Below are positions 1 through 26,099 of a stretch of DNA of 64,000 nucleotides, piece by piece. Origin of the DNA: Pseudovirgaria hyperparasitica. Taxonomy: Eukaryota. A program made the translations under genes and the position numbers. Position 1 is the first letter of the stretch; each line of letters begins with the position of its first letter. The stretch lies in NCBI GenBank assembly GCA_010093815.1, contig ML996572.1; one strand, 5' to 3'. The notes under the pieces were generated by a model. That model did no database searches. It saw only the letters and a program-made list of their open reading frames with translations, and was not told the origin of the DNA.

Positions 1-3000
1 TTAGCTCGCCCTTAATAACCGTACCTCGTTAGTAACCGGCATGGCGCTAAACTTACTTCTAAACGGATACCACGTCAAACTATTACTATAGTAGCTACTC
101 TCTAATACCTCTACGACCTCGGCGAAAGATCAGGCTATGAATTTCCTTAAACACCTTTAAAATAGCACTACCTTAGCTTAAGTAGCTATTACCTAGGCCG
201 AGTAGCGCTCCTAAGACTCGGTAAACTAGTTACGACGCCCGGCCGAGCGTTTTAAGGTCGGCGATATAGTATAGTTCTCCCTCCGGAATATAAAGACTAA
301 CCGCCCGAGCTAGAAGCTCGACTAGCTATAGGTAAAATACCGGGTTATAGCCTAACCCACCTCCTTAATAGTAACCCTCGACCTCCCCGGAGACCTTTAT
401 AAAATAGTCTATATAAGCCTTATCGAGCGCGCCGTAGAGGACCCCCTACCTAGCTAAGAGCGGCTTAATACCCGCCCGGGCCTAGCGCTTAAGCTTAATA
501 AAGTAGACGAGGACGTCGCGGAGTATAAGGTTAAGAACATCCTATATATAAAAAATATATAGAGGCGGAATAAGCGATAGGTGCTCGTAAAGTAGAAAGG
601 GTAGTTATAACTAATATAGGTCCTACTTAAGGACGTAGAAGATACTAAGGCGCTAGACTAGTTCGAGTCTAGATATGGCGACGCTCGATTATATAATAGC
701 CTATAACTCTAACGCATCCCTAAGTAGTAATATTACTCTACTATTATAGGCCTACGGCGGCCCTAATAACCTAATATAAGAGTAGAGATTTTAGGAAAGA
801 AAGAAATAAACGCCGAACGCTAGTACCTAGTATAACCTAATAATAAACCAACACCCGCCTTAAGACATGAAAAGGTTATTTACCTAGCTCTACCCTAGGT
901 TTACACGGCGCTAGGGCCGGTACCGTTCTTATCTATAAATCCTAATATAAGGTTAGTTACCTAGTCCTCCCCTAGGCCGTCTCCTAATAATAGTAGCGGC
1001 TATTAATCTAGGCGGGTAGCGAGGGTAAGTCGTACTCGTCTACGGGAGGGTTATAGCGGGGGTAGGCCGGCGACCGATAGCGGCGTAACGCTTAACGATC
1101 CTCACGGGAATAGTGCCGACGGCTACCTAAGCGATAGCGATAGTCGTGCGACTAGTCCTAATAGTTATATAACCGGTTACGATAGCGGGGAGACTAATCA
1201 CGGCGGGCGGGGGACCGGCTACGACGCTTATAGAACTAGGAGCGGTCACGGTAGTAAGGAGGGGTCCGGGACTAATAATAAGGCGGCGAGGACTTATAAG
1301 GAGGGGTGGTAATAGGGAGCTAGGGGGGCCTAATAGGGCGATAGCGAGAGCTCCGAGTCGGCGACTCCCTATAGCCTATGGGCTAGGGTCGGCGCGAGCG
1401 GCTACTATCTAATAAGGGCTCCTTATCCTCTATAACTACCTAAGTAATAAGGCGGCGAGATAGTAGCTCCGCTAGGCGGGCCAACCCGGATACGACTTAC
1501 TATATAGTACCCTACATCACGCGTTAGAATAGGTATTTAGACTTATAAAGCTTATATACCTATAAGGTACCGATACTAGTACGTAGCTTATCTATCTAGG
1601 CCTCGTTATAGGATACGTACTAATTTATCTAGTAAATCACGCTACTAATCTAGCCACGGTTACTACTACCGCGATACGGCGGCTTAAATAATATTATAGC
1701 GCCATGATAAGGCGTTATAGAAGCCTAACTAACGATACTAGCGTTATATCACGCGACGTAGATAATCTCTAAGTTAGACTTATAGTCCTCGTATAGGCGG
1801 TAGAACTTAGAGTTTATACGCGGCCACTTACTAGATAAAGGCTTTATCGGGTCTAGGCCGCGACTACTATAATCCGTTATATGGCTAAAGTTATTATTAA
1901 CCGACTTATGCATAAACTTTTTAAGACGACTCTACGCCTTATATAAGGCCGGATACATGGCGAGCTCCTTAGTATCCTATAAGTAGGTCCCCTTCGATAT
2001 ATAGTACTTTATATAGTTAGTACCGCGGCTAGGCTTATAGCTACGCTCTAAGATTAGTAGGCGCCGCCATAGCGTAGAGACGGCATATACCTAAGCACCC
2101 TAGTTTTCTCTAGGGCCTTTATATATATACGATATACGAAGTATACGGACTCGGTACACTCGTCTTCTAACGAGTTACCCTCTATAATATATAGCCCTAT
2201 ACGGCGAATAGGCTTAGCCTATCAGGGTATGGTAGGAGGAATAGTCTATCTAGTTAGTATAAGGAACGGCGTAGAGACAGGACCCACTCACGGTACGATC
2301 GGCTAGTTCCTAGCGCCTAGGCGCGCGACGATCGTTAGGGTCTTAACCTCCAGCACCTATAGCTACCGCCGAGACGGCGCCGGTTTCTATAATAGAACTA
2401 TTTAGGCCTAGAGCGCTTATAATAATAGTATAGAAGCTGCGAGGTGGTATATAAGTTTACTAATATTATAGTAGCTACTACGCGGTATTAAGATAGTAGG
2501 TATAAGGGTAGTTAAGGAAGAAGAAAGTCGCTAGGCGTGGGACCCATATACTTGCGTTAGGGAAAATCGTATAGGCCGGGGTAGAGCCGGTTCTAAAATG
2601 GACGATAATAATAATAAACGCGGGTCGTGCGTAAGCTACCCTACTACTACTATATAACCCCTAGCCCGGCGAGTAGCCGGTCCTAAAATAGATAATAATA
2701 AAACGGGACACGCGGTTCGTGCGTAGGCTACCCTACCTTCATATAACCTAACGCGGCACGCCGTGGTATAAGGAGCCTACCTCCGCTATATAACCGCTAC
2801 GACGTAACTATAGAATTCTACTACCTTATAATTATATAACCTACGACGCCATAATATAAGGAACTAACCTCCGCCACGTAACCGCTAGAACGCTACTATA
2901 AAAAGCTACTACCTTACTAGAAGGAATATATAGCCCTACGGTTATTATATAGTACGATATAAAGACCGTAAACCCAAGACCTAACCGAGCCGGTTATTAT

Positions 3001-3252
3001 TATATAAAATACTAAGCCGGTCCCTAGGACGATCCTAGAGAACAAGGGTATGTTATAGACTTCGGCTTTACCTTATCTCTAGTATTATATAATAGAGCCG
3101 GGACGGATAGAGACTAGTATAGGGGTATCACGTGACCTCGCTTAAGACTATACTTAAAGCTATAACCATACGGCTTATCCCTATTCTCTCTAAGTTAAAT
3201 TATAATATATCTTGGTTACCATTGTAGTAACACCTTAGTTATATCCATTACA
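1..3252 (+). mobile_element. RIP-degraded Ty3/Gypsy chromovirus 'C', 3' half (integrase C-terminus, chromodomain, long 3' region, PPT, 3' LTR)
   Basis: Degenerate translation gives integrase-like ALNNRTSLVTGMA (~8-50) and chromodomain-like EYKVKNIL...VLVK*KG...LKDVEDTKALD (~520-680). Purine tract GAGAACAAGGG precedes TGTTA at 3051. Many TAA/TAG stops and TpA excess. Confidence 0.8.
3051..3252 (+). repeat. 3' LTR of element C
   Basis: Starts TGTTA just after a purine tract and ends TTACA. Sequence switches to element A at 3253. The partner LTR would lie outside the window. Confidence 0.65.
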
Positions 3253-6200
3253 CGATATTAGAATTCCTAGAAAAGGTTCTAGTAAAAAGGCTAAGGTTCC
3301 TTCCTCGCGCGTGCTAAAGAGCTATAAATTTAGGGAAGATAGCTCTAATCTAGAAGTTTCTATACTAAAGGTATATGGTTCTATACCGATTATTAAATCT
3401 TTTCGCTAATTTATATAATTCTTAGCGTACCCGCGCCAGTCCATCCCTCTCCATCCCGGGTCCCGCCGCTCTATAGGTTTCTATAGAGGAGTTTATAGCT
3501 ATAAGGCGCGCTATATAGAATTTATAGCGTTAGAATAAAAGGCTAGAGACTTATATTATAAAGCTCTATACTATGCTAAATAAGAACTAGTAGAAGGAAT
3601 TAGATATAACCATCGCGGTAATTAGTACTTCTACTCCTACTCCGACTTAATCGGTTTAGATCTATACTAATCGGTACTAATATATCTCTTTTATCTAGCG
3701 TTTTTGGTTTTTCGGTTTTAATTTTAAAGTGATCTTACTTCTTCTAGATAGATTAGTATAAGTTTATATAGATCTATATAGATCTTTATATTTTCTTTTA
3801 GCTTTCTTAATTTTATCTTTCTTTAATAATAACTTCTTTAATCTCTTTAGTAATCTATACCGATCTATACCAATCGGCACCGATTTCCGATGTCCATTTC
3901 TCTTAGTGAATTATTTTTCTAAGTCTCTTTTTTAGTTAAATTTTTTGAAGTTCTAAGTTTGAACTTTCTAAGGAAGTTCCTTAATTCCTTAGAATGTTTT
4001 AAAGATCTATGTCTCTTTTACCTTCTTCCTTTTAGGCGGCCGTCCTCGGCGCCGAACTATACTAAAAAACGTCGAATCACCGTACTTTAGCATAATTCTC
4101 CGCGATTCTACGGCTTCCTTTGCTAATCGCTACTTATATACTAACATCGCTACTTTACTAATGTTTATTATAGGTTCCTAAGTATCTTTGTTAGAATTAT
4201 ATCCTTTCTAACGAATTTTATATAGCCACGTGCCATCTTCAGCGCGTTACTAGCTAAGTATCTACTTAACTTCGTAGATATCTATACCTTCTTACGTAAC
4301 TACTTTATATAGTATCTATTCGGAACGATCCGGTAATAATAAGGCATGAAATGGCTCGAGAAGCGTAATATAGAATATATTATATATCTTTAACGTAGGA
4401 GGGAGTTATAACTCGTACGCCTGGTTATTAATTACATAAGTAATCTTATATAGACCTATTATTATATAGTTAAGCTTCTTCTTTAGCCTAATACTACGAA
4501 TATTCTTACTATTTAGTAAAACTTTATCCCTAACATTAAAGATCATAGGTTTTCTACCCTTATTATAGTACGATTTACTATAATTCATAGTATCTTATAG
4601 TAACTTTATAACGCTTCTTTACGTTTAGAATAGTTCTATAGTAATTTCTATTACTTTAATATTAGGTCGTTCTACTTTAAACTAAGTCCCTAAGAACTAC
4701 GCATTATGGTTCCGACCGAAGTTTACTTCGAACGGACTTACGTGGGTTAACGTATATCGGCTGTTATTATACGCGAATTCCGCGATATAGACTAACCTTA
4801 CCTAGTTATTCTACTTATAGTTATAATATACGCGTAAATACGCCTCGACTATCTAATTCTACCGCTCCGTCTACCTATCTATTTATAGATAGAACGTAGT
4901 ACTAAGTTTCCGCTTAATTCCTAGCGTATAGTAGAAATCCTTCTAAAATTTAGACGTTATCTACGGACCTCTATCTAAAACTATACTGTTTAGTATACTA
5001 TAGAGCCGGACTACGTCATGGAGTAGTATATCTATAAGATTCGGTACTTAGATCGTCTTCCTTATAGGGATATAGTATAATATCTTTATAAATCTATCTA
5101 GAACTACGAGTAAACTATTATAAATATACCTAGAATACTTACTTAGGGGTAGATCTATAATAAAATCTATTAATAATTCCTTCTATGCCTTCTTTAGTAT
5201 AGGTAATAGCCTTAATTCGCTATATGGTAAGTGTCTATATACTTTCGTATGCTGGTAAACGTTACACGTTTTTACGTAGTCTTTTATATATTTATAAAGA
5301 CCTAGCTAGTCGTACGTCCTTCGGATTAAATCGACCGTTCTTATAACGCCGAAGTGCTCTACTAACGTATAATCATGCTATTCCCTTAAAATATTAATTT
5401 ATAAGCCGCCTTCCGGCACGTAGAGTCGGCCTTAGAAGTAGATCGCGTCCGATCGTCGTTCCTACCTTAATAACTATAGCGGATCTATAGCGCTTCCTTT
5501 TATGCTTATAACTTTCTTTACTAATATATTGGAATTCTAGGTAGATTTAATTAAGTCTTTAAGGGTTTTCTTAGTTTCTTAGACGTTTATTTAGATTACT
5601 TAATACCCGCTCTAATTCCCACAGAGAATCACCGAAAGTGTCCTAGCTTCTAGCATTCTATTAGATAACTAGTCTTATAGTATCTAAAGTATAGTATAGT
5701 CTAACTTATACCGACTATCTACGTTATTCTATAACGATTTCTTATAATCTTCACGCCGCGATAGAGAATTAGCTTTATTCTCTCTTCTAGCTTTATATAA
5801 GATTTTAAAGTTAAATATTAATATCTACTTAGCCTAACATACTTATCGGCGATTAAGGACCTTGGTTAATATAAAGTAACGTAGATTTACGTAATCTAAT
5901 AATAATTCGATCTAATGTGCGGAGCCTTCTAAATAATATTACTATTACTTAAAACTCTTAATAATTATAAGTAGTTCCTAGTCGTGCGTGTTATAACGCG
6001 TCTCTATATCCGCCATTTTACGGGAAAAGAAAGCGACCGGGTACTATTACACCTTATCTTTCGCATCTTTATATAGTTAACTAATAATTCTAGTAATTAC
6101 GAATTCTAACGCGTTAGTTTTAACCTAAATATACTTCTTAGGATCGAAATACCTAAGAATTAGCGTAGTTATAAAGTAATTCTTTAATAATCGGAACGCA

Positions 6201-9615: not shown

Positions 9616-9755
9616 NNNNNNNNNNNNNNNNNNNNNNNNNNNNNNNNNNNNNNNNNNNNNNNNNNNNNNNNNNNNNNNNNNNNNNNNNNNNNNNNNNNNN
9701 NNNNNNNNNNNNNNNNNNNNNNNNNNNNNNNNNNNNNNNNNNNNNNNNNNNNNNN
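9616..9755. other. Assembly gap (140 N)
   Basis: Run of N inside B copy 1. Confidence 1.
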
Positions 9756-12700
9756 TAACCTCTATATAGACCTATCTACCCTCTTTTAGAACCTAAGTTA
9801 TAAGCCCTTCGAGAATATATCGAAAAGAACCTTATATAAGAATAGATTAGGCCTAGTATATCCCTAGCTAGAGCTCTAATTCTCTTTATAAAGAAGAAGG
9901 ATAGGAGTCTCCGTCTATATATTAACTACTATAGCCTAAATAATATTACGCGAAAGAATTATTACCTACTACCTCTTATCTCCGAGTCTATTAATAGACT
10001 AGGGCGCGTGAAGATCTTTACTAAGCTTAATCTACGCGACGCCTACTACCGCCTACGTATTAAGAAGGGCGATAAGTAGAAAACGGCGTTTAGGACCCGT
10101 TATAGATACTTTAAGTATATAGTAGTCCCTTTTAGACTAACTAACACGCTAGGAACCTTCTAAGTATATATTAATAACGCGCTAGTAGGTCTACTCGACA
10201 CGACGTGTATCGTATACCTTAATAATATCCTTATCTTCTCTAATAATAAAGAAGAATATATCTAGTATATACGCGTAGTCCTAGATAGGCTAGAAAAATA
10301 TAAGCTATATATTAAGCTATCTAAATACGAGTTCCACTAGGACCACGTTAACTTCCTTAGCTTCGTTATTACTAATTAAGGTATAACTATAGAAAGGGAT
10401 AGGGTCGCTACTATTATAGACTAGCCTAAACTAAAATCGGTTCGAGACATACGTGTCTTTATTAGATTTACTAATTACTACTAAAAATTCGTTAAGTATT
10501 TCTCCCGGCTAGTAGCACCGCTTAACACGTATATTACTACTATAGATTCGTCTATTACGGTCCGCGGTAGATAGAAATAGTATAATATTAAATTATAGCC
10601 TATAGAATTATTAGAAGGTAAAAGGGCCTCCTTCGAGAAAATCAAAGAGGCATTTATAACTACTCTATTACTAATATACTTTGACCTAACTAAACCTATC
10701 CGCGTTAAAACCGACGCGTTAGAATTTATAATCTTAGGCATTCTCTTCTAGCCTAGACTAACTAAGTCTAAAAAGGTCTAATAGTATCTAGTTACGTTCT
10801 TCTCACGTAAAATAGTCGATATTAAGACTAGATATACTATCTATAACTAAGAGCTACTAGTAATAGTAGAGTCGTTTAAATAGTAGCAATATTATCTTAA
10901 AGGTAACATGTATAATATTAAGTTACTAACTAATTACTATAACTTAAAGGGGTTTATAAGTATAACGGTTTTAAACTATTAATAGGTCTAATAGACTAAG
11001 TAGCTTACGAACTTTTACTTTATAATCTACTATTAACCTAGAAGTATAAACCTAGCTAATAGAATGTTAAGAAGACCTAACTATAAAGAAGGCGCCTAGG
11101 ATTATAGTAGCTATAGGGTCCTAGAGTAGCTATAGGCCTAACTCTTAAGGATAAGGTTAGATTTTAAGTTATTAGGCGATTAGCGAGATACTAACATTAA
11201 TACTAGTAATCGAATCTCTAAGACCGAAGCCGGTAACTAAAGACGCAGTACCGAAGTCTCTAGTAGGCCGTTTATTAGCGCTATTAGAAAGGGCGATAAT
11301 ACCTAGCGTAAATATCTAATTAACCTCGCCTAGTTAATTATAGATCTATAGAAGATAGACCCGATAGTTTTAAAGTTACGTAAAATATAGTAAGATAGGT
11401 TATTATAGACTAAAGTAGACTATAAGTAGACCTTCGTAGACGGCTTACTTTACTATAATAGAAAGTACTATATACTAATAGGTAACACGCGATTTGATAT
11501 AGTTAGCTAATACTATAACGCTAACCTAGTAGAATACTTTAGGTATATATATACCCTAAGCTTAATTCGTTAGTACTATTTTTAGGAAGATATGCCTAAG
11601 TACGTCGAAGAATAGATAGCTACTTATCTAATTTATTAAAGAACGAAGGCCCCTAGGCATAAGCTATATAGGAATTTATAGCCTCTTTCAGCCCCCCTCT
11701 TTATATAGAAAGATATTATTATAGACTTTATAGTTAAATTACCTCTAAGCGAGATACTTAGGATAAGTTATAATTCTATTCTTATTATTATAGATAGACT
11801 TATAAAGATATCTAGGTATATCCCGGTGTAGAAGACGATTATATCTAAAGAACTAGCGTAGGTATTCTAGAACAAGATTATTAAGGTCTATAGTATACTA
11901 AAAAGGATCGTTATAGACCGAGAAAGTACCTTCACGTCTAAATTCTAGACGTTATTCTATAAAATAGTAAGTATAAATAGAAATATATCTATAGTATTTT
12001 ATCCTTAGACGGATAGCTAGATAGAGCGATAGAACTAGACGCTTAAGGCCTACCTACGCGCATTCTATAATTTCGAGTAGGACGACTAGGCCTCCCTACT
12101 AAGTATAGTAGAGTTCATATATAATAATAGTCGTTATAGCACGATAGATATTATACCTTTCTAGGCGAACCTCGGACGTAGTCTAAGGATAGGTTTTAAG
12201 CCTTAGACGGTCTAATTTAATCGAATAATAGACGTGAACGTCCACGCTTAGAAATTAGCAATTAAAATCTTCGAAACCATACATAACTATCGCGCTATAA
12301 TCTAATAAGTAAACGACTCGTATATAAAGTACTATAATAGATTAGCTAAGGATTAGACGTATAAGGAGGGCGACGAGGTCCTTCTTAATATCTATAATAT
12401 ACGAACATCGCGAGTAAATAAGAAGCTTAATTATAAAATAGCTAGTCCCTTCCGAATTAAATATTATATTAGTATAAGAGTCTACGAGCTCGACTTAGAA
12501 AGCGATATAAGAATCTATAACGTGTTCCATATCTTACTACTCGAAAGATTTCGATCTAATATATATGGCCGCATGAACGTGTAGTTATACTCTATTATAC
12601 CCTAAGATGGACTAGACGTGTTCGAAGTAGACTATATTATTAAACATAGGATTAATAAAGACGGCGTTTAGAAATATAGAATCCATTAGAAGGACTATAC

Positions 12701-15249
12701 TAAGAATAAGGATACCTAGGAACCAGCGGTATATATCTTAAGTTCTATAATAGCTACGATAAGTAAAAGATATAGAATAGTATATTATTAATATAAGTAT
12801 AGCGACGTCGCGGTTATCGTAAAAAGAAGAAGGATACCATAGAGAATAAAGTGCTAAACTAGGAAATCCAGACACGTACTAGGAAAACTCTATATAGTAG
12901 CCCTATAATTTAAGCGTTATATGGTTACTAGACGCGAAGAAAGCGTAAATAACTATTTTAGAAACGCGACGCGATATACTATAATAGAATAATATAGAGA
13001 AGTCTAGAATAGACTAATATAGACCATTATATATAAGAAAAACATAGGACTAAGAACCTAAAAAAAGGTACCCTACTATAGAATTAAACTCTTAATACGA
13101 AATATAAAAGGTTAGAGTATCTAAACCGATAACTACTAGACTACTAGTTTAGATGCTCTAATAGAATTTATAGAGATAAACTAATTTATATACGGTGCCC
13201 ATACTTAGGTAACTTAAGGAAAATTAGAATATAGAAACTAATAGTTATAAGCTAAGCGAGCGCACATATAATATCGTTAAGTTAAGAATTAAATTACTAG
13301 AAACTAGCCGACGGGTATCTAAACGGTCTAAAAAGGACTAAAATAGATAAGAGCTAGATATAGAACTAATATATAGAGCTAGGCATAGAGCTAATATATA
13401 GAGCTAGACTATAGAGCTAATATAGAGAGCTAAACCTATAGAGCTAGAACTATAGAGCTACTCCTCTATCTTATTATCTGTTCTAACCTCTAGTATAGTC
13501 CTCTCTAACTATATAATATAGTAGTAGAGGATGACGACCTTAGCCTCTAGAGTAATAACCCGATCCGTTAGAGCCTAGAGGGAAGAGCCTTAAGCGCCGG
13601 AGCGTAGCGACTAGGTCTAAAGTTAGCTAATACGATCTAGAATAATCTAGAAGGGAATATATACCCTCTTACGAGGCGACTTAGAGGGAGAAATAGTAGA
13701 CCTCTTATAAGATCTATTAGTAGCGCGAGACGGATAGAGGGGGATAGAGCGAATCCTCTCTACGGCCTCTATAGCTAGGATAGACTCCCTAGAATAGGTA
13801 GTCTAGACGCTAGGGATCTCGCGGCGGCTAGAAAAATTAATAGATGTTAAAAATAATTAATATACTTATAACTTATACTTTAATAACCTCTAGGAAGAGC
13901 TTATAGCGCTCCCTAAACTCCCTCTATATAGTAGATAGACGGCTATAAGGACCCCTAAGGGTCTCGCGGACGCGAAGGTCGTTATATATATCTTATATAT
14001 ATATAGGAATCTAAGAATATATTAGCGCGGACTACTTTAGATTATACTAGATTAAGATAGCCTATTATACTTACCTATAGATAAGTCTTACTAGTTATAG
14101 TATAGCGGCGGTAGCGGGTAGATAGAGTAAAGATAGGGCGTATAGACCCGTTACGGTTAGTAGAGTAGTAGCTAATACTAGAGTTAGAGCGAAAGAGATA
14201 TTTAGAGCCGGCCGTATAGCTCTTAATATACTTATAGTATATCGAACCGTAGTTTGCCGTTTTTCTATAGCGTAAACCACGACTACGTTTAGTATCCTTA
14301 GCGACCTAGGCCTTATTATTAGTAGACTAGGGTTTAGAGTAAATATTAAGGTCCTAAAAGGACCTAGAGTAACTAAATTAGTCTATATTAGACCGGAAGG
14401 AAGAGTAGTAAGGCGGCGGCGTGGGTAAGCGCGAGGGCTCGCGATTATTATCTATAACGAGATCTTCTTTATCCTCTAGAGGAGGTAGAGTAGATAGTAT
14501 ACGCTTTAGAGTAAGAGGAGAATCTACGACCACTTTATCTATAAGTTTAGTACTAGAATTACCTAGATTAGAGTAACTAGTAGCTATATTAGTAGTAGAG
14601 GTAGTAGTAGTAGTAGCCCTAGCTACTCTCTTCTCCGACTTAGAGCGCGCCTTTATACTACCATAATAGGTAGGCTTCTTAGCCGGCGTGGCCGGGGAGA
14701 AGGTAATACCTTTAGAGCGAGTCTTACGAGAGGAGGAGGTAGGCTTAGAGATAGGACTAGTATTAGATATCTATATATATATATTAGCTAGAGATCTAAG
14801 GAAGGAATATTCGTCTACCCTTAACGGCGATTAACGAAGCTAAATTAGTAACTATAATAACGCGAATAGGTTATATTAGACCGGTTCTAATAAGAATAGA
14901 CTACTATAGACCCTTCTAAACCTAAACTAGGGAAGATAGTATATAAATTAACGACTTACCTTAAGAGCGAGGTGGATATACTAGAGAATAAAATTAAAGG
15001 CGAGCGAAGCTAAATATATACTTAACTAAAGTAGTAATTATATGTCCTAGATAGTAGCTACGAAGTAAGGGATAAGCGCGTATATAAACTAGTAAAAGTA
15101 AACTAGAATCTCGAGTTCACCTATATTAAGGATGGTTATAATATTATAGAAACTTAGTTACGGATATATAGGTATACGATAGATTATAGAGACTTAGGAT
15201 TATATATACTTAAGTACTTTAGGGCGAAGTATAAAAAGAAGAAGGATAT

Positions 15250-15487
15250 TATTAGGACGGGAACTATAATAGATCTATATAGACTATTCTAATCTATATA
15301 GCCACGTAGTAGCTAGAGCTAGGTTAAGTTAGCTAAGTTAAGCGAGGTTACTATATAAGTAGACCTCATAAACCGATTCCTACTTATTAGGAATCAACCT
15401 TGTATAAGAGTAAGATTACTCTATAAATACATTCCTATGTCTCTCTATGAACTATTAGACTACTATCCCACGTCTTTACTCTTTACA
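15250..15487 (+). repeat. 3' LTR of B copy 1 (238 bp)
   Basis: Follows the PPT, starts TATTAGG (RIP-ed TGTTAGG) and ends TTTACA. Matches the reverse complement of 17540-17777 and 25356-25593. Confidence 0.9.
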
Positions 15488-17539
15488 CTCGATAAGAACG
15501 GTGTCTAAAAGTATTAAATCCGTTGGAAGAACTATACTAAGAATAAGAACACCTAGGAACCTACGGTATATATCTTAAGCGCCGCGATAGCTATATATAA
15601 ATAGAGGTTATAGAATAATACGTTACTACTATAAACCTAGCACCGTCGGGGCCGTTATAAAAAGAAGAAGGATACCGTAGAGAATGAAGTATTGAATCAC
15701 GAATCCTAAACGCATACTAGGAAAACTCTATAAGGTAGCCCTATAATTTAAGTAATACACGGTTACTAAACACGAAGAAAACGTAAATAACCGTTATAGG
15801 CACGTAACGTAATATATTATAATAGAATAATATAGAGAAGTCTAGAATAGACTAATATAGACTATTATACACGAGAAGAATATAGGACTAAGAAACTAAA
15901 AAGGTACCCTACTACGGAATTAAACTCGTGATATATAATATAAAAGGTTAGAGTACCCGAACCAATAACCACTAGGCCACTAGTTTAGATACTCTAATAT
16001 AATTTAGAGAGATAAACTAATTTATATACGATACCTATACTTAAGTAACTTAAAGGAAATTAGAACCTAAAATTTAATAGTTATAGAATAAATAAGAACG
16101 TATATAATATTATTAAGTTAAGAATTAAATTACTAGAAAACTAGTAGATAGGTATCTAAATGGTCTAAAAAGGACTAAAACGGATAGAAACCAGGTAGAT
16201 AGAGCTAATACACACTATATAGAAACCCTAGCAAATAGAGCCATAGAGCTACTCCTCTATCTTATTATTACTCTTAGAGCGTAGCGAACGAACTAACTAA
16301 GTAATAGAGTAACGGAGGTTAGAGACCTTATCCTCTAGAGTAACCACGCGCTTAGTTAGAGCCTAGTAAGACGATAACTAAGCGCTAGAGCGGAGCGACT
16401 AGACCTAAAGTTAGCTAACGCGGTCTAGAATAATCTAGAATAGAATATATACCCTCTTATAAGGTAACTTAGAAGGAGAACTAGTAGACCTCTTACGAGA
16501 CCCGTTAGTAGTATAAGACGGGTAGAAAGGAATAGTACGAATCTCTTCTACGGCCTTAGTAGCTAAAACCGACTCCCTAGAATAGGTAGTCTAAGTACTA
16601 GGAATCTCGCAGCGACTAAAAATTATAAGCTAAGGTTAATAATAATTAACGGTTTCTAAACTTATACTTTAATAACCTCTAGGAAGAGCTTATAGCGCTC
16701 CCTAAACTCTCTATATATAGAAGCTAGATAATTACTAGAACTACCGAGAATCTCGCGGACGCGAAGATCGTTATATATATCTTATATATAAATAGAAACC
16801 TAAAAACGTATTAGTATAGATAACTTTAGATTACTCTAGACTAAAATAGTCTAATAGACTTACCTAAAGATAAACTTTACTAAGGACGGTATAGCGGTAG
16901 TAGCGGGTAGAGAGCTTAAAGATTAGGTATATAGGCCCGTCGCGGTTAGTAGAGTAGTAGCTAATACTAGAGTTAGAGCGGAAGAGATATTTAGAGCTAG
17001 TAGCGTGAGCCTTAATATACTTAAAGTATATTAAACTATAGTTTACCGTTTTCCTATAGCGTAAACCGCGACTACGTTTAGTATCTTCGGTAACCTAGGC
17101 CTTATTATTACTAGGGCTAGGTTTAGAGCGAATATTAAGGTTCTAAAAGAACCTAGAGTAACTAAGTCGGTCTATATTAGACTAAAAAGAGGAACGGCGT
17201 TTAGAGCGAGGCGGCGGAGGCGTAAACTCTCGATTATTATCTATAATAAGATCTTCTTTATCCTCTAAAGGAGGTAGAGTAGATAGATAGCGCGAGTAGA
17301 TATAGGTAGGCTTTATAGCTACCTCTTCCGTAATACTAGTACTAGGATTATCTAGATTAGAGCGACTAGTAGCTACGTTAGTAGTAATAGTAGTAGTAGT
17401 CTTAGCTACCTTCTTCTCTAACTTAGAGCGCGCCTTTATACTACTACGATAAGTGGATTTTTTAGCTAGTATAGCCGGGGTAGAGATAATCCCTTTAGAG
17501 CGAGTCTTACGAGAGAAGGAGGTAGACTTAGAAATAGAA

Positions 17540-17777: not shown

Positions 17778-18256
17778 ATATCCTTCTTCTTTTTATACTT
17801 CGCCCCGAAGTACTTAAGTATATATAATTCTAAGTCTCTATAATCTATCGTATATCTATATATCCGTAACTAAGTTCCTATAACGTTATAACTATCCTTA
17901 ATATAGGTGAACTCGAGATTCTAGTTTACTTTTACTAGTTTATGTACACGCTTATCCCTTACTTTATAGCTACTACCTAGGATACGTAATCGCTACTTTA
18001 GTTAAGTATATATTTAGCTTCGCTTACCTTTGATTTTATTCTCTAGTATATCTACCTCGCTCTTAAGGTAAGTCGTTAATTTATATACTATCTTCCCTAG
18101 TTTAGGTTTAGAAGGGTCTATAGTAGTCTATTCTTATTAGAACCGGTCTAATATAACCTATTCGCGTTATTATAGTTACTAATTTAGCTTCGTTAATCGC
18201 CGTTAAGGGTAGACGAATATTCCTTCCTTAGATCTCTAGCTAATATATATATATAG

Positions 18257-19710
18257 ATATCTAATACTAGTCCTATCTCTAAGCCTACCTCCTTCTCTCG
18301 TAAGACTTACTCTAAAGGTATCGCCTTCTCCCCGGCTACGCCGGCTAAGAAGCCTATCTATTACGGTAGTACGAAGACGCGCTCTAAGTTAGAGAAGAGA
18401 GTAGCTAGGGCTACTACTACTACTACCTCTACTACTAATATAGCTACTAGTTACTCTAATCTAGATAATCCTAGTACTAAACTTATAGATAAAGTAGTCA
18501 TAGGTTCTCCTCTCGCTCTAAAGCGTATACTATCTACTCTACCTCCTCTAGAGGATAAAGAAGATCTTATTATAGATAATAATCGCGAGCCCTCGCGCTT
18601 ACCCACGCCGCCGTCTTACTACTCTTCCTTCCGGTCTAATATAGACTAATTTAGTCGCTCTAGGTCCTTTTAGGACCTTAATATTCGCTCTAAACCCTAG
18701 CCTACTAATAATAAGGCCTAGGTTACTAAGGATACTAAACGTGGTCACGGTTTACGCTATAGGAAAACGGCGAACTACGGTTTAATATACTATAAGTATA
18801 TTAAGGGCTATACGGCCGGCTCTAAATATCTCTTTCGCTCTAACTCTAGTATTAGCTACTACTCTACTAACCGTGATAGGCCTATACGCTCTATCTTTAC
18901 TCTATCTACCCGCTACCGCCGCTATACTATAACTAGTAAGACTTATCTATAGGTAAGTATAATAGGCTATCTTAATCTAGTATAATCTAAAGTAGTCCGC
19001 GCTAATATATTCTTAGATTTCTATATATATATAAGATATATATAACGATCTTCGTGTCCGTGAGACCCTCGGGGGTTCTTATAGCCGTCTACCTACTATA
19101 TAGAGGGAGTTTAGGGAGCGCTATAAGCTCTTCCTAGAGGTTATTAAAGTATAAGTTATAAGCACGTTAATTATTTTTAATACCTATTAATTTTTCTAGC
19201 CGCCGCGAGATCCCTAGCACCTAGGCTATCTATTCTAGGGAGTCTATCCTAGCTATAGAGGCCGTAGAGAGAATTTACTCTATCCCCCTCTATCCGTCTC
19301 GCGCTACTAACGGATCTTATAAGAGGTCTACTATTTCTCCCTCTAAGTCGCCTTATAAGAGGGTATATATTCCCTTCTAGATTATTCTAGATTATATTAG
19401 CTAACTTTAGATATAGTTACTACGCTCCGGCGCTTAAGGCTCTTCCCTCTAGGCTCTAACGGATCGGGTTATTACTCTAGAGGCTAAGGTCGTCGTCCTC
19501 CGCCGCTATATCATGCGGTTAGAGAGAACTATACTAGAGGTTAGGACGGATAATAAGATAGAGGAGTAGCTCTATAGTTCTAGCTCTATAGATTTAGCTC
19601 TCTATATTAGCTCTATAGTCTAGCTCTATATATTAGCTCTATACCTAGCTCTATATATTAGCTCTATACCTAGCTCTTATCCGTTTTAGTCCTTTTTAGA
19701 CCGTTTAGAT
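18257..19710 (+). pseudogene. RIP-inactivated spliced antisense accessory gene of element B (putative Zn-cluster-like protein); further copies on the minus strand at ~13320-14770 and in B'
   Basis: Introns GTAAGT..GCTAAT..TAG at 18068-18256 and 18953-19016, plus a probable one at 19149-19199. Exons are conserved and introns diverged between B and B'. Six conserved TAY codons at 18788-18946. The 3' end is approximate. Confidence 0.6.
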
Positions 19711-22700
19711 ACCCGTTAGCTAGTTTCTAGTAATTTAATTCTTAACTTAACGATATTATATATACGCTCGCTTAGCTTATAACTATTAGTTTCTATATTC
19801 TAATTTTCCTTAAGTTACCTAAGTATGGGCACCGTATATAAATTAGTTTATCTCTATAAATTCTATTAGAGCATCTAAACTAGTAGTCTAGTAGTTATCG
19901 GTTTAGATACTCTAACCTTTTATATTTCGTATTAAGAGTTTAATTCTATAGTAGGGTACCTTTTTTTAGGTTCTTAGTCCTATGTTTTTCTTATATATAA
20001 TGGTCTATATTAGTCTATTCTAGACTTCTCTATATTATTCTATTATAGTATATCGCGTCGCGTTTCTAAAATAGTTATTTACGCTTTCTTCGTGTCTAGT
20101 AACCATATAACGCTTAAATTATAGGGCTACTATATAGAGTTTTCCTAGTACGTGTCTGGATTTCCTAGTTTAGCACTTTATTCTCTATGGTATCCTTCTT
20201 CTTTTTACGATAACCGCGACGTCGCTATACTTATATTAATAATATACTATTCTATATCTTTTACTTATACGTAGCTATTATAGAACTTAAGATATATACC
20301 GCTGGTTCCTAGGTATCCTCGTCCTTAGTATAGTCCTTCTAACGGATTCTATATTTCTAAACGCCGTCTTTATTAATCCTATATTTAATAATATGGTCTA
20401 CTTTAAACACGTCTAGTCTATCTTAGGGTATAATAGAGTATAACTACACGTTCATGCGGCCATATATATTAGATCGAAATCTTTCGAGTAGTAAGATATG
20501 GAACACGTTATAGATTCTTATATCGCTTTCTAAGTCGAGCTCGTAGACTCTTATACTAATATAATATTTAATTCGGAAGGGACTAGCTATTTTATAATTA
20601 AGCTTCTTATTTACTCGCGATGTTCGTATATTATAGATATTAAGAAGGACCTCGTCGCCCTCCTTATACGTCTAATCCTTAGCTAATCTATTATAGTACT
20701 TTATATACGAGTCGTTTACTTATTAGATTATAGCGCGATAGTTACGTACGGTTTCGAAGATTTTAATTACTAATTTCTAAGCGTGGACGTTCACGTCTAT
20801 TATTCGATTAAATTAGACCGTCTAAGGCTTAAAACCTATCCTTAGACTACGTCCGAGGTTCGCCTAGAAAGGTATAATACCTATTATACTATAACGACTA
20901 TTATTATATACGAACTCTACTATACTTAGTAGGGAGGCCTAGTTATCCTACTCGAAATTATAGAATACGCGTAGGTAGGCCTCGAGCGTCTAGTTCTATC
21001 GCTCTATCTAGCTATCTATCTAAGGATAAAATACTATAGATATATTTCTATTTATACTTACTATTTTATAGAATAATATCTAGAATTTAGACGTGAAGGT
21101 ACTTCCTCGGTCTATAACGATCCTTTTTAGTATACTATGGACCTTAATAATCTCGTTCTAGAATACCTACGCTAGTTCTTTAGATATAATTATCTTCTAT
21201 ACCGGGATATACCTAGATATCTTTATAAGTCTATCTATAATAATAAGAATAGAATTATAACTTATTCTAAGTATCTCGCTTAGAGGTAAGTTAACTATAA
21301 AGTCTATAGTAACGTCTTCCTATATAAAGAGGGGGGCTAAAAGAGGCTATAAATTCCTATATAGCTTATGCCTAGGGGCCTTTATTCTTTGATAAATCGG
21401 ATAAGTAGCTATCTATTCTTTAACGTACTTAGGTATATCTTCCTAAAAATAGTACTAATAAATTAAGCTTAGGGTACGTATATACCTAAAGTATTCTACT
21501 AGGTTAGCGTTATAGTATCGGCTAACTATATTAAATCGCGCGTTACCCGTTAGTATATAGTACTTTCTATTATAGTAAAGTAAGCCGTCTATAAAGGTCT
21601 ACTTATAGTCTACTTTAGTCCGTAATAACCTATCTTACTATATTTTATATAACTTTAAAACTATTAGGTCTATCTTCTATAGATCTATAATTAACTAGGC
21701 GAGGTTAATTAGATATTTACGCTAGGTATTATCGCCCTTTCCGATAGCGCTAATAAACGGCCTACTAGGGACTTTAGTACCGCGTCTTTAGTTACCGGCT
21801 TCGGTCTTAGAGATTCGATTACCGGTATTAACGTTAGTATCTCGCTAATCGCCTAATAACTTAAAATCTAACCTTATCCTTAAGAGTTAGGCCTATAGCT
21901 ACTCTAGGACCCTATAGCTACTATAATCCTAGGCGCCTTCTTTATAGTTAGGTCTTCTTAACATTCTATTAGCTAGGTTTATACTTCTAGGTTAATAGTA
22001 GATTATAAAGTAAAAGTTCGTAAGCTACTTAGTCTATTAGACCTATTAATAGTTTAAAACCGTTATACTTATAAACCCCTTTAAGTTATAGTAATTAGTT
22101 AGTAACTTAATATTATACATAGTACCTTTAAGATAATATCGCTACTATTTAAACGACTCTACTATTACTAGTAGCTCTTAGTTATAGATAGTATATCTAG
22201 TCTTAATATCGACTATTTTACGTGAGAAGAACGTAACTAGATACTATTAGACCTTTTTAGACTTAGTTAGTCTAGGCTAGAAGAGAATACCTAAGATTAT
22301 AAATTCTAACGCGTCGGTTTCGACGCGGATAGGTTTAGTTAGGTTAAAGTATATTAGTAATAGGGTAGTTATAAATGCCTCTTTGATTTTCTCGAAGGAG
22401 GCCCTTTCGCCTTCCGATAATTCTATAGACTATAATTTAATATTACGCTATTTCTATCTACCACGGACCATAATAGACGAATCTATAGTAGTAGTACGCG
22501 TGTTAAGCGGTGCTACTAGCTAGGAGAAATACTTAATAAATTTTTAGTAGTAATTAGCGAATCCGATAAAGATATATATATCTCGAACCGATTTTAGTTT
22601 AGACTAGTCTATAATAGTAGCGACTCTATCCCTTTCTATAGTTATACCTTAATTAGTAATAATAAAGCTAAGGAAGTTAACGTGGTCCTAGTGGAACTCG

Positions 22701-25593: not shown

Positions 25594-26099
25594 TAGAACT
25601 AGTATTAGATATCTATATATATATATTAGCTAGAGATCTAAGAGTAGAATACTTATTTAGCCGTAAAGGCGATTAAAGAAGCTAAATTAGTAACCATAAT
25701 AACGCGAATAGATTATATAGGACTAGCTCTAATAAAAATAGACTACTCTAGACCCGAACGGATCTAAACTAAAGAAGATAGTATATAAATTAATAACTTA
25801 CCTTAAGAGTAAGGTAGATATACTAGAGAAGAAAATTTAGAATAAGAGAACTAAATATAAGCTTAGTTAATATAGCGGTTATATAACCCGTAGAGCTACC
25901 TCTAAGGTAGTAGCTATAAAGTAAGGGATAAGCATGTATATAAATAAAAGTGAACTAGAGCTTAAGTTTACTAATATAAAGACTATCGATAACGTTATAT
26001 GGATTTAATTAGATACGTATATAAATATAACGCTTATAGAATTACGGATTTATATATAGCTAAGTACTTCGGGGCGAAGTATAAAAAGAAGAAGGATAT

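Follow-up and report, generated by a model that had tools for sequence, protein, structure and literature searches.

Intron-like signals opposite pol suggest a relict antisense gene in a RIP-destroyed Ty3/Gypsy element family of Pseudovirgaria hyperparasitica

The antisense gene brtn of the Boty element was reportedly described by Zhao et al. (2011, Virology 417:248). In the portions available of other reports, brtn appears as an additional antisense gene of the Boty-like (BcGypsy1) Ty3/Gypsy elements of Botrytis cinerea (PMC8365987, PMC4227169, PMC7264820), and plant elements (Grande, RIRE2, Retand with TRP28 domain) are described as having antisense aORFs between pol and the 3′ LTR (PMC7264820, PMC11963269) that are retained in families (PMC7264820). 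Antisense genes in this position are not new, being in print, as far as the available text of these sources goes, for Boty and for many plant elements (PMC8365987, PMC7264820, PMC11963269). Here we analyze element C, which lies at the start of a 64,000-nt window of the P. hyperparasitica genome (GCA_010093815.1, contig ML996572.1) and for which an initial annotation, made from the sequence alone, had proposed an antisense spliced gene at 800-2460. The closest known case is brtn, likened to it by layout and not by sequence: in each case a Ty3/Gypsy element of a fungus has an additional gene, a putative one in C, on the strand opposite gag-pol, whereas the C copy is RIP-dead and its intron number and protein are uncertain. 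With the plant aORFs, as the available parts of the sources present them, C shares the place between pol and the 3′ LTR, the probable antisense orientation, the presence in most copies and a long region possibly containing repeats; they differ in coming from plants, mostly from non-chromovirus lineages, and in having no introns mentioned in that text, and no TRP28 or other Pfam domain was found in C.

The annotated span lies within the pol-to-3′ LTR stretch of a Ty3/Gypsy element that is present in many copies, has been destroyed by RIP and carries pol on the plus strand (Table 1). When the plus-strand translation of 230-721 was compared by pairwise BLASTP with the integrase C-termini of elements A and B, it aligned to both (E 2e-4 and 2e-5, respectively), in each case over the Pfam SH3_Tf2-1 domain of that element. 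Pfam also detects RVT_1 and RNase H in the pol of both, Integrase_H2C2 in A only and Chromo in B. On C itself there was no direct SH3_Tf2-1 match, and its chromodomain-like stretch neither matched a Pfam family nor aligned significantly with the chromodomain of A or of B; a search of pol (2-721) against longer proteins returned 438 candidates, with none at E <= 0.001. The RT, RNase H and integrase core of C would fall upstream of the first base of the window, and the 5′ LTR also lies outside it.

The RIP indices over 1-3250 (TA/AT 2.0-2.2; (CA+TG)/(AC+GT) 0.17-0.19) are far from those of the gene-rich half (0.73 and 1.24), and in sequencing run X1 transitions account for 515 of the 533 differing places among copies of family C; the one transversion among the places listed is at 2670. 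Contig pieces of the family with 80-100% likeness to 1-3400 numbered 2680 in run X1 and 1496 in run X2, while runs X3 and X4 yielded 0 and 1 matching pieces. Depth is of one order over 1-3078, except for a dip at 1027-1254, and it is the same over 800-2500 as over pol; the region therefore belongs to the family and not to a single copy.

C pol is over by ~790 and the LTR begins at 3051. The LTR edges were placed where contigs of other copies turn into unlike sequence, before 3051 and past 3250-3252; depth rises 4- to 10-fold from 3079 on, and the LTR, which is itself repeated in the genome, has TG...CA ends and a AGAGAACAAGGG purine tract upstream. The purine-rich tract directly before it is probably the true polypurine tract, judging from its place next to the 3051 boundary. 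The run at 2514-2527 had been considered as a polypurine tract with an LTR starting at 2528, and was rejected in favor of 3051 on the loose ends and depth. Purine runs of at least 14 nt are rare, with only six on the plus strand of 1-28000, including the one at 793-806.

Table 1. Features of element C and of the proposed antisense gene, in window coordinates
Feature	Position	Strand	Basis
C-terminal end of pol (integrase), RIP-mutated	2..721	+	BLASTP vs elements A and B
SH3-like integrase domain of pol	~251-430	+	BLASTP alignments onto SH3_Tf2-1 of A and B
Chromodomain-like stretch of pol	~524-700	+	judged by eye only (VLVK*KG*)
14-nt purine run AGGAAAGAAAGAAA, just behind pol	793..806	+	purine-run count; candidate element only
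Pol-to-3′ LTR region, ~2.2 kb, family-wide at pol depth	807..3036	.	depth of other copies
101-codon open frame in the phase of pol	1007..1312	+	ORF list, R/Y scores; aligned antisense frame is the alternative coding strand
Intron-like signal 4, 48 nt: GTATAT ... CTAAC (1527-1523) ... TAG	1512..1559	-	intron-pattern scan
Intron-like signal 3, 63 nt: GTAAGT ... CTAAC (1777-1773) ... TAG, canonical fungal form	1769..1831	-	intron-pattern scan
Second half of proposed motif: Tyr codons 2039, 2015, 2006, 1985 (plus 2003), read C-x7-C-x2-C-x6-C	1983..2047	-	sequence
Intron-like signal 2, 43 nt: GTATAT ... CTAAT (2057-2053) ... TAG	2048..2090	-	alternative 5′ site 2130 gives 83 nt
Exon of the initial annotation, with TAT-ACT-TCG-TAT (2145-2134)	2091..2245	-	sequence, splice models
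Intron-like signal 1, 46 nt (42 nt to TAG at 2250): GTGAGT ... ACTAAC ... TAG	2246..2291	-	intron-pattern scan
Second 14-nt purine run AAGGAAGAAGAAAG, within the pol-to-LTR region	2514..2527	+	purine-run count
Purine-rich tract AGAGAACAAGGGTA, directly before LTR	3037..3050	+	sequence; adjoins boundary 3051
3′ LTR, ~202 bp, TGTTATAG ... CCATTACA	3051..3252	+	loose ends of copies, depth, TG...CA ends

A retroelement can keep introns on its antisense strand only, because sense introns would be spliced from the genomic RNA before reverse transcription. Intron-like patterns in C are indeed enriched on the antisense strand: the minus strand of 807-2513 holds two strict and four distinct loose patterns, the plus strand one. 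In Markov simulations the expected number is 0.30-0.33 for the strict pattern and 0.86-0.90 for the loose one, with P(>=2) of 0.03-0.05 and P(>=4) of 0.013-0.016, and when scaled to the full 2.2-kb region the P value for the loose pattern is ~0.03; these enrichment values (0.01-0.05 overall) apply to a pattern that we defined ourselves. As a control, the same scan recovered three antisense intron-like signals in each of three copies of the antisense gene of element B and few elsewhere. Within signal 2, a 1-nt deletion at 2050 is present in two contigs of other copies.

In its upper part (~1500-2400), the pol-to-LTR region of C most likely preserves what is left of an opposite-strand accessory gene with several short spliceosomal introns, a reading that we hold with moderate confidence. 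The data show which element this is and how it is oriented, its RIP, the family-wide presence of the region and the antisense enrichment; that the signals are real introns, the exon frames, any cysteine motif and the function are inferred. It has to be weighed against the absence of any gene, in which case the stretch behind pol would be non-coding (a long 3′ untranslated or regulatory region) and the signals would reflect TA-rich, RIPped DNA combined with a free choice of frames and splice sites. We consider this unlikely, yet it is the most serious of the alternatives: the P value of the intron cluster is only 0.013-0.05. Against it, the cluster shares its strand and its position with the one in B, a stretch of 1.7 kb contains two canonical GT[AG]AGT...CTAAC...TAG signals against an expectation of 0.3, and ~2.2 kb kept at full family depth is long for a pure untranslated region.

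All eight strings quoted in the initial annotation are found on the minus strand where it had placed them: besides the TAT-ACT-TCG-TAT listed in Table 1, these are GTGAGT at 2291-2286, CTAAC at 2257-2253, TAG at 2248-2246 (with a second TAG at 2252-2250), GTATAT at 2090-2085, TAG at 2050-2048, TAT-ATA-AAG-TAC at 2015-2004 and TAC at 1985-1983, and an additional TAT at 2039-2037 supplies the x7 spacing. The in-frame joining of the two proposed cysteine halves, which had been named as the weak point of the gene model, also holds, in that removal of 2090-2048 (43 nt) joins them through a codon split as G/AG. A second splice model is at least as good: a stop-free ORF of 54 codons at 2218-2057, which overlaps the proposed exon in another frame and holds a real TGT at 2158-2156 (minus strand), continues in frame to the CIKC half if an 83-nt intron (2130-2048) is removed. 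Since both models work, the exon frames are ambiguous, and the equal fit of two incompatible models counts in favor of a non-coding region. The TGA at 1751-1749, which closes the frame proposed initially, reads CGA in ~86% of the depth of other copies.

The proposed protein had been credited with a cysteine pattern similar to that of the B protein, on the premise that its tyrosine codons are RIP-mutated cysteine codons. This motif could not be confirmed. Tyr makes up 6-11% of codons in all six frames, with Cys, His, Trp and Gln almost absent, and a tyrosine so common in every frame can be called a former cysteine in any of them. Among the 55,996 codons of the RIPped 28 kb there are 462 instances of Y/C-x2-Y/C, 40 of Y-x2-Y-x6-Y and two of the full post-hoc pattern Y-x7-Y-x2-Y-x6-Y. 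Codons of the YRY class (Tyr, Cys, His and the CGY codons of Arg), whose membership RIP leaves unaltered, number 11 among the ~40 of the motif window; equally rich windows, 1.5% of the total, are found at 46 separate places across the 28 kb. Both the tyrosine frequency and the recurrence of such windows are what a non-coding region would predict. One of the six proposed Cys sites, the Tyr codon at 2145-2143, appears among the 40 of 563 differing places listed: the majority of other copies have C on the plus strand at 2144, which is G on the minus strand (72-80% of depth) and yields TGT, while in the alternative frame the same change is synonymous (GTA to GTG). The claimed similarity is reduced to one checkable codon that depends on the frame, and the canonical zinc-cluster spacing is absent. 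The spacing of a Zn2Cys6 cluster is C-x2-C-x6-C-x5-12-C-x2-C-x6-8-C. The second half of the C motif, C-x2-C-x6-C, fits the second half of this cluster (Pfam PF00172) if Tyr is read as Cys, but the first half has no C-x2-C-x6-C, neither splice model gives the full spacing, there is no Pfam match, and the canonical spacing has zero matches in the six frames of 1-28000 even when Tyr is counted as Cys. Readings of Tyr as former Cys require evidence copy by copy.

The density of stop codons did not discriminate between frames, and stop counts are uninformative here because the demonstrable pol frame (2-721) itself contains 24 stops in 240 codons. The purine/pyrimidine (R/Y) pattern, which is immune to RIP, gave weak tests only: it marked 1007-1450 and failed both pol controls, and the R/Y dicodon score, trained on only six host ORFs, is too weak to detect the pol frame in 1-720. 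For the two motif exons of the initial annotation, the R/Y log-odds are 5.2 and 5.0 bits in favor of the minus strand, in line with true coding windows, which average 4.7 (sd 6.1). The stretch 1007-1450 is less RIPped and GC-richer than its surroundings and has a strong 3-base periodicity, which is itself at odds with a purely non-coding region. This lower third of the annotated span does not fit the phase assigned to it, -2, by either dicodon score or strand log-odds: the dicodon score peaks there in +2 and -1 and lies far below zero in -2, and over 1010-1511 phase -2 trails the plus frame codon-aligned with it by 33.8 bits. The stretch 1007-1312 seems to be coding in another phase, which may be on the sense strand.

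Sense-strand coding could extend to the whole region or only to its lower part (~840-1450), as a C-terminal tail of pol past the chromodomain or as a separate ORF, and the antisense gene would then be shorter or absent. The open frame at 1007-1312 shares the phase of pol, which would happen by chance in one case in three. Over 102 codons, the strand log-odds prefer it to the aligned antisense frame, with a margin of 14.8 bits, and the top dicodon score in 1051-1200 belongs to +2, but the dicodon model rates the aligned antisense frame equally (29.2 vs 26.8 bits, summed over 1051-1350). The sense translation is hydrophilic (Gly/Ser/Asp/Tyr-rich) and the aligned antisense frame is rich in Ala, Leu, Pro and Ile. 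Given that pol in A and B ends ~30-80 codons past the SH3 domain, that the 14-nt purine run at 793-806 separates pol from this ORF, and that sense coding leaves the cluster of antisense intron-like signals at 1500-2300 unexplained, we judge it improbable as an account of the region. Among the other copies, 1007-1312 shows dips in depth and joints that skip 120, 102 and 55 nt.

The statement that C has no obvious nucleotide similarity to B agrees with our searches, which detected none. The further proposal that both carry the same cargo design found no support, the two regions showing no similarity by tblastx, BLOSUM62 and a RIP-invariant purine/pyrimidine codon alignment; the last of these negatives is weak, since the 8-class alignment also missed the relationship used as its positive control, that of C pol to the pol of A (z 0.6) and of B (z -1.1). 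What the reported antisense gene of B (18068-19710) and the putative one of C do have in common is their position in the element, their strand, a cluster of short intron-like signals and a RIP-dead state. They differ in the exon between the last two introns (346 nt in B, 209 nt in C) and show no detectable nucleotide or protein similarity. Copies of a purine tract, in the form of identical 14-mers, stand at both ends of the B region, and C has two similar runs. A more speculative view, which we put forward tentatively and regard as rather doubtful, is that several chromovirus families in a single fungal genome, though unrelated, have a modular cargo site in common behind pol, where each maintains an intron-bearing antisense gene of its own. 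The site would be marked by purine tracts and would have been refilled repeatedly, with template switching at a duplicate of the polypurine tract as one conceivable route; Cys-rich protein starts would then be convergent or a shared nucleic-acid-binding module that controls the element.

Antisense introns and dissimilarity to B would equally be expected of a passenger: a piece of a host gene, or of a different mobile element, taken up in reverse by the ancestor of family C (transduction) and of no service to family C itself. The data at hand do not distinguish a passenger from the retained accessory gene that we favor, but in our searches the region resembled no protein and no Pfam family, and it is present at full depth across the family, as in the retained plant aORFs described in the available part of PMC7264820, and we assign the passenger only a very small probability.

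No homologue was found for any reading of the region, in searches that are low-powered on RIPped DNA. Pfam searches of the six read-through frames of 1-4200 and of eight shorter pieces gave nothing beyond a chance-level AIPR_N match (E 0.11; 12.9 bits, with the cut-off at 28), a negative that weighs little, as C's own pol was missed too. The minus-strand translation of 1749-2090 had one candidate among proteins of 62-200 aa and residues 1-163 of that of 1010-2048 had 995 among proteins of 190-606 aa, with none at E <= 1 in either search. In metagenome contigs, a 29-nt RIP-tolerant pattern had no matches and a related-locus search gave 293 pattern matches, none confirmed; in viral contigs, eight pattern matches were found, none confirmed, and the DNA pattern had no matches. 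In heavily RIPped DNA, stop codons, Pfam and word-based searches are nearly powerless. The absence of a homologue also adds to the case for a non-coding region. Of the initial proposal, the place behind pol of a Ty3/Gypsy element unlike B and the enrichment of antisense intron-like signals, as in B, stand; the antisense spliced gene itself is plausible, with ambiguous frames and no homologue found.

In an active family, the antisense gene of C may have been transcribed from an LTR-side promoter of its own and, after splicing, have yielded a small protein with many Tyr/Cys/His/Arg-class codons at its start. If brtn, plant antisense aORFs and retroviral antisense genes are taken as a guide, this protein probably acted in the nucleus on the expression of the element itself; for the plant aORFs, to which C is likened in this respect, a nuclear or DNA-binding regulatory role is suspected in the available portions of the sources cited above. 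The present copy is a fossil, now without function. If the gene is real, C is a further retrotransposon family to join the fungal elements with an antisense, intron-containing accessory gene, although a dead copy with an unmatched protein teaches little beyond brtn. With regard to repeats in the pol-to-LTR region, TRF found no tandem array in 1000-1450, and weak repeats of ~95 nt are present at 2728-2916.

Positions 1-28000 of the window carry a RIP signature (TA/AT is 1.6-2.2, compared with 0.73 in the gene-rich half, and (CA+TG)/(AC+GT) is 0.17-0.25, compared with 1.24 there) and are RIP-mutated repeat DNA. Element C, the retrotransposon at the start of this region, aligns at 230-721 (+) with the integrase C-terminus of the Ty3/Gypsy elements A (E 2e-4) and B (E 2e-5), and the alignment coincides exactly with their Pfam SH3_Tf2-1 domains; from this sequence likeness we infer that C is itself a Ty3/Gypsy element with its pol on the plus strand. 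The pol stops somewhere in ~706-790 (+), and a possible chromodomain is recognisable by eye only. When contigs of two DNA sequencing runs of the same organism were mapped onto 1-3400 at 80-100% likeness, 2680 pieces were placed from one run and 1496 from the other, and 515 of the 533 places that differ among copies (run X1) are transitions. These numbers, together with a depth over 800-2500 similar to that over pol, make C a high-copy family and the 800-2500 stretch a property common to that family, beyond the present copy. Contigs of other copies diverge from this one upstream of 3051 and downstream of 3250-3252, and depth climbs from 3079, which therefore delimits the long terminal repeat (LTR).

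The initial annotation had proposed an antisense spliced gene at 800-2460 of C, encoding a cysteine motif (CTSC...C-x7-CIKC-x6-C after reversal of RIP, with Tyr as former Cys) like that of B's candidate antisense gene. Each string it quoted is found on the minus strand where it had been placed, and the joint between the motif halves, described as its weak point, works in frame via a split codon after excision of 2090-2048 (43 nt). The description is accurate; its meaning is a separate matter, and the cysteine motif itself is only possible.

Stop counts are useless for finding genes here because the known pol frame, with 24 stops in 240 codons, has no fewer than random frames. We scanned for introns with a loose (GT[AG][ACT][AG]T...CT[AG]A[CT]...YAG) and a strict (GT[AG]AGT...CTAAC...TAG) pattern, and 807-2513 holds four distinct matches on the minus strand (two strict) versus one on the plus strand. 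Second-order Markov simulations give expectations of 0.86-0.90 (loose) and 0.30-0.33 (strict), with P(>=4 loose) of 0.013-0.016 and P(>=2 strict) of 0.03-0.05; scaled to the full 2.2-kb pol-to-LTR region, the cluster has P ~0.03. The same scan finds three antisense signals in each of the three copies of B's candidate gene and few elsewhere, which validates the scan and makes C like B in this single respect. In other copies, the TGA at 1751-1749 that closes the annotated frame is CGA in ~86% of depth. RIP causes transitions only, so the purine/pyrimidine pattern is untouched by it and can serve for RIP-proof tests; the strand log-odds of the two motif exons (+5.2 and +5.0 bits toward the minus strand) match what genuine coding windows usually give (mean 4.7, sd 6.1 bits), yet are less than one sd from zero. 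With all evidence combined, we lean towards the view that this locus holds a genuine but defunct spliced gene on the antisense strand.

Coordinates of features in elements A, B and C
Feature	Element	Strand	Position	Details
Intron-like signal	C	minus	GTGAGT 2291-2286; ACTAAC 2258-2253; TAG 2248-2246	TAG also 2252-2250
First motif half	C	minus	2145-2134	TAT-ACT-TCG-TAT
Candidate short intron	C	minus	GTATAT 2090-2085; CTAAT 2057-2053; TAG 2050-2048	
Second motif half	C	minus	TAT 2039-2037; TAT-ATA-AAG-TAC 2015-2004; TAC 1985-1983	
Intron-like matches	C	minus	2291-2246; 2090 or 2130-2048; 1831-1769; 1559-1512	loose scan
LTR	C		~3051-3252	ends TGTTATAG...CCATTACA; purine-rich tract just before
Pol-to-LTR region	C			~2.2 kb
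14-nt purine runs	C		793-806; 2514-2527	within pol-to-LTR region
Purine run AAAAAGAAGAAGGA	B		12821-12834; 15233-15246	mirror copy 20193-20206, 17781-17794; also 15659-15672, 26083-26096
Pfam domains	A, B			RVT_1, RNase H, SH3_Tf2-1 in both; Integrase_H2C2 in A only; Chromo for B

Tyr accounts for 6-11% of codons in each of the six frames, Cys, His, Trp and Gln being almost gone, and a Tyr codon in this DNA may originally have been one for Tyr, His or Cys. One of the six proposed Cys sites appears among the 40 listed of 563 differing places: TAT 2145-2143 is TGT in 72-80% of depth. Whether this denotes Cys depends on the frame, because a rival splice model, in which a stop-free ORF at 2218-2057 (containing a real TGT) and an 83-nt intron at 2130-2048 also join the CIKC half, renders the change at 2144 silent. 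Canonical Zn2Cys6 spacing was not found in 55,996 codons, even counting Tyr as Cys; the annotated spacing, set post hoc, has 2 matches in the same codons. Tyr/Cys/His/Arg-class codons (11 of ~40) place the motif stretch in the top 1.5% of all windows by density, a value reached at 46 places.

No nucleotide similarity was found between the C and B regions, as the initial annotation had stated. Its idea of the same cargo design in both finds no counterpart at the protein level: the best tblastx match has E 0.12, the BLOSUM62 score is 60 (null 54.9 +/- 4.3), and the RIP-invariant score, from a method that failed its positive control, is 34.9 (null 33.6 +/- 4.0). Protein, Pfam, metagenome and viral-contig searches returned no relatives of C's region, which says little because C's own pol is equally invisible to them.

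The lower part, 1007-1450, is GC-richer and less mutated, differs in length among copies, and shows a strong 3-base periodicity that follows plus frame 2 (the pol phase) and its aligned antisense frame. In the annotated phase it scores only -24.7 and -17.0 bits, so this span is not a simple continuation of the annotated frame. The strand test puts the plus strand ahead by 14.8 bits; a dicodon model leaves both strands unseparated. From the phase scores and strand test, two readings follow for the lower part: an ORF or pol tail on the sense strand, or an exon that comes later in the candidate antisense gene and lies in a different phase. Within it, 1027-1284 has the element's lowest depth, with single contigs of other copies whose joints skip 120, 102 and 55 nt; TRF finds no tandem repeat in this length-variable, low-complexity, 3-periodic stretch.

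An antisense gene between pol and 3' LTR, brtn, has been published for Boty of Botrytis (Zhao et al. 2011, as cited in PMC8365987, PMC4227169 and PMC7264820), and passages of PMC7264820 and PMC11963269 describe such genes in many plant elements, with proposed nuclear, regulatory roles. The candidate gene of C shares their position and strand as these passages give them and, if real, belongs to an already known kind. Weak direct repeats of ~95 nt in C's post-pol region (2540-2920; 2728-2828 versus 2821-2916, 74% alike) are reminiscent of the arrays of repeats that PMC11963269 describes between pol and LTR in plant Retand elements.

At 3250-3256 the 3' LTR of C, which ends in ...CCATTACA at 3252, lies tail to tail with the LTR end of minus-strand element A (from 3255), two bases apart, both boundaries being marked by loose ends of other copies. 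Summed contig depth at 3079-3400 rises from ~10-30 thousand to 117-273 thousand; the LTR ends of C and A are much more abundant, or more conserved, than the interiors, which suggests many solo LTRs.

Two copies of B lie inverted to each other (9756-15493 versus 23272-17534, 95% alike), with an assembly gap (9616-9755, 140 N) just ahead of B's pol. A third, partial copy of B's post-pol region lies between them (12655-14754 versus 15492-17537, 77% alike) and retains three antisense intron-like signals. The purine run AAAAAGAAGAAGGA occurs twice in B, ~30 nt past pol and immediately before the LTR, thus flanking the pol-to-LTR region; the runs of C are similar, not identical. The duplicated polypurine tract might be a trace of how the cargo region arose.
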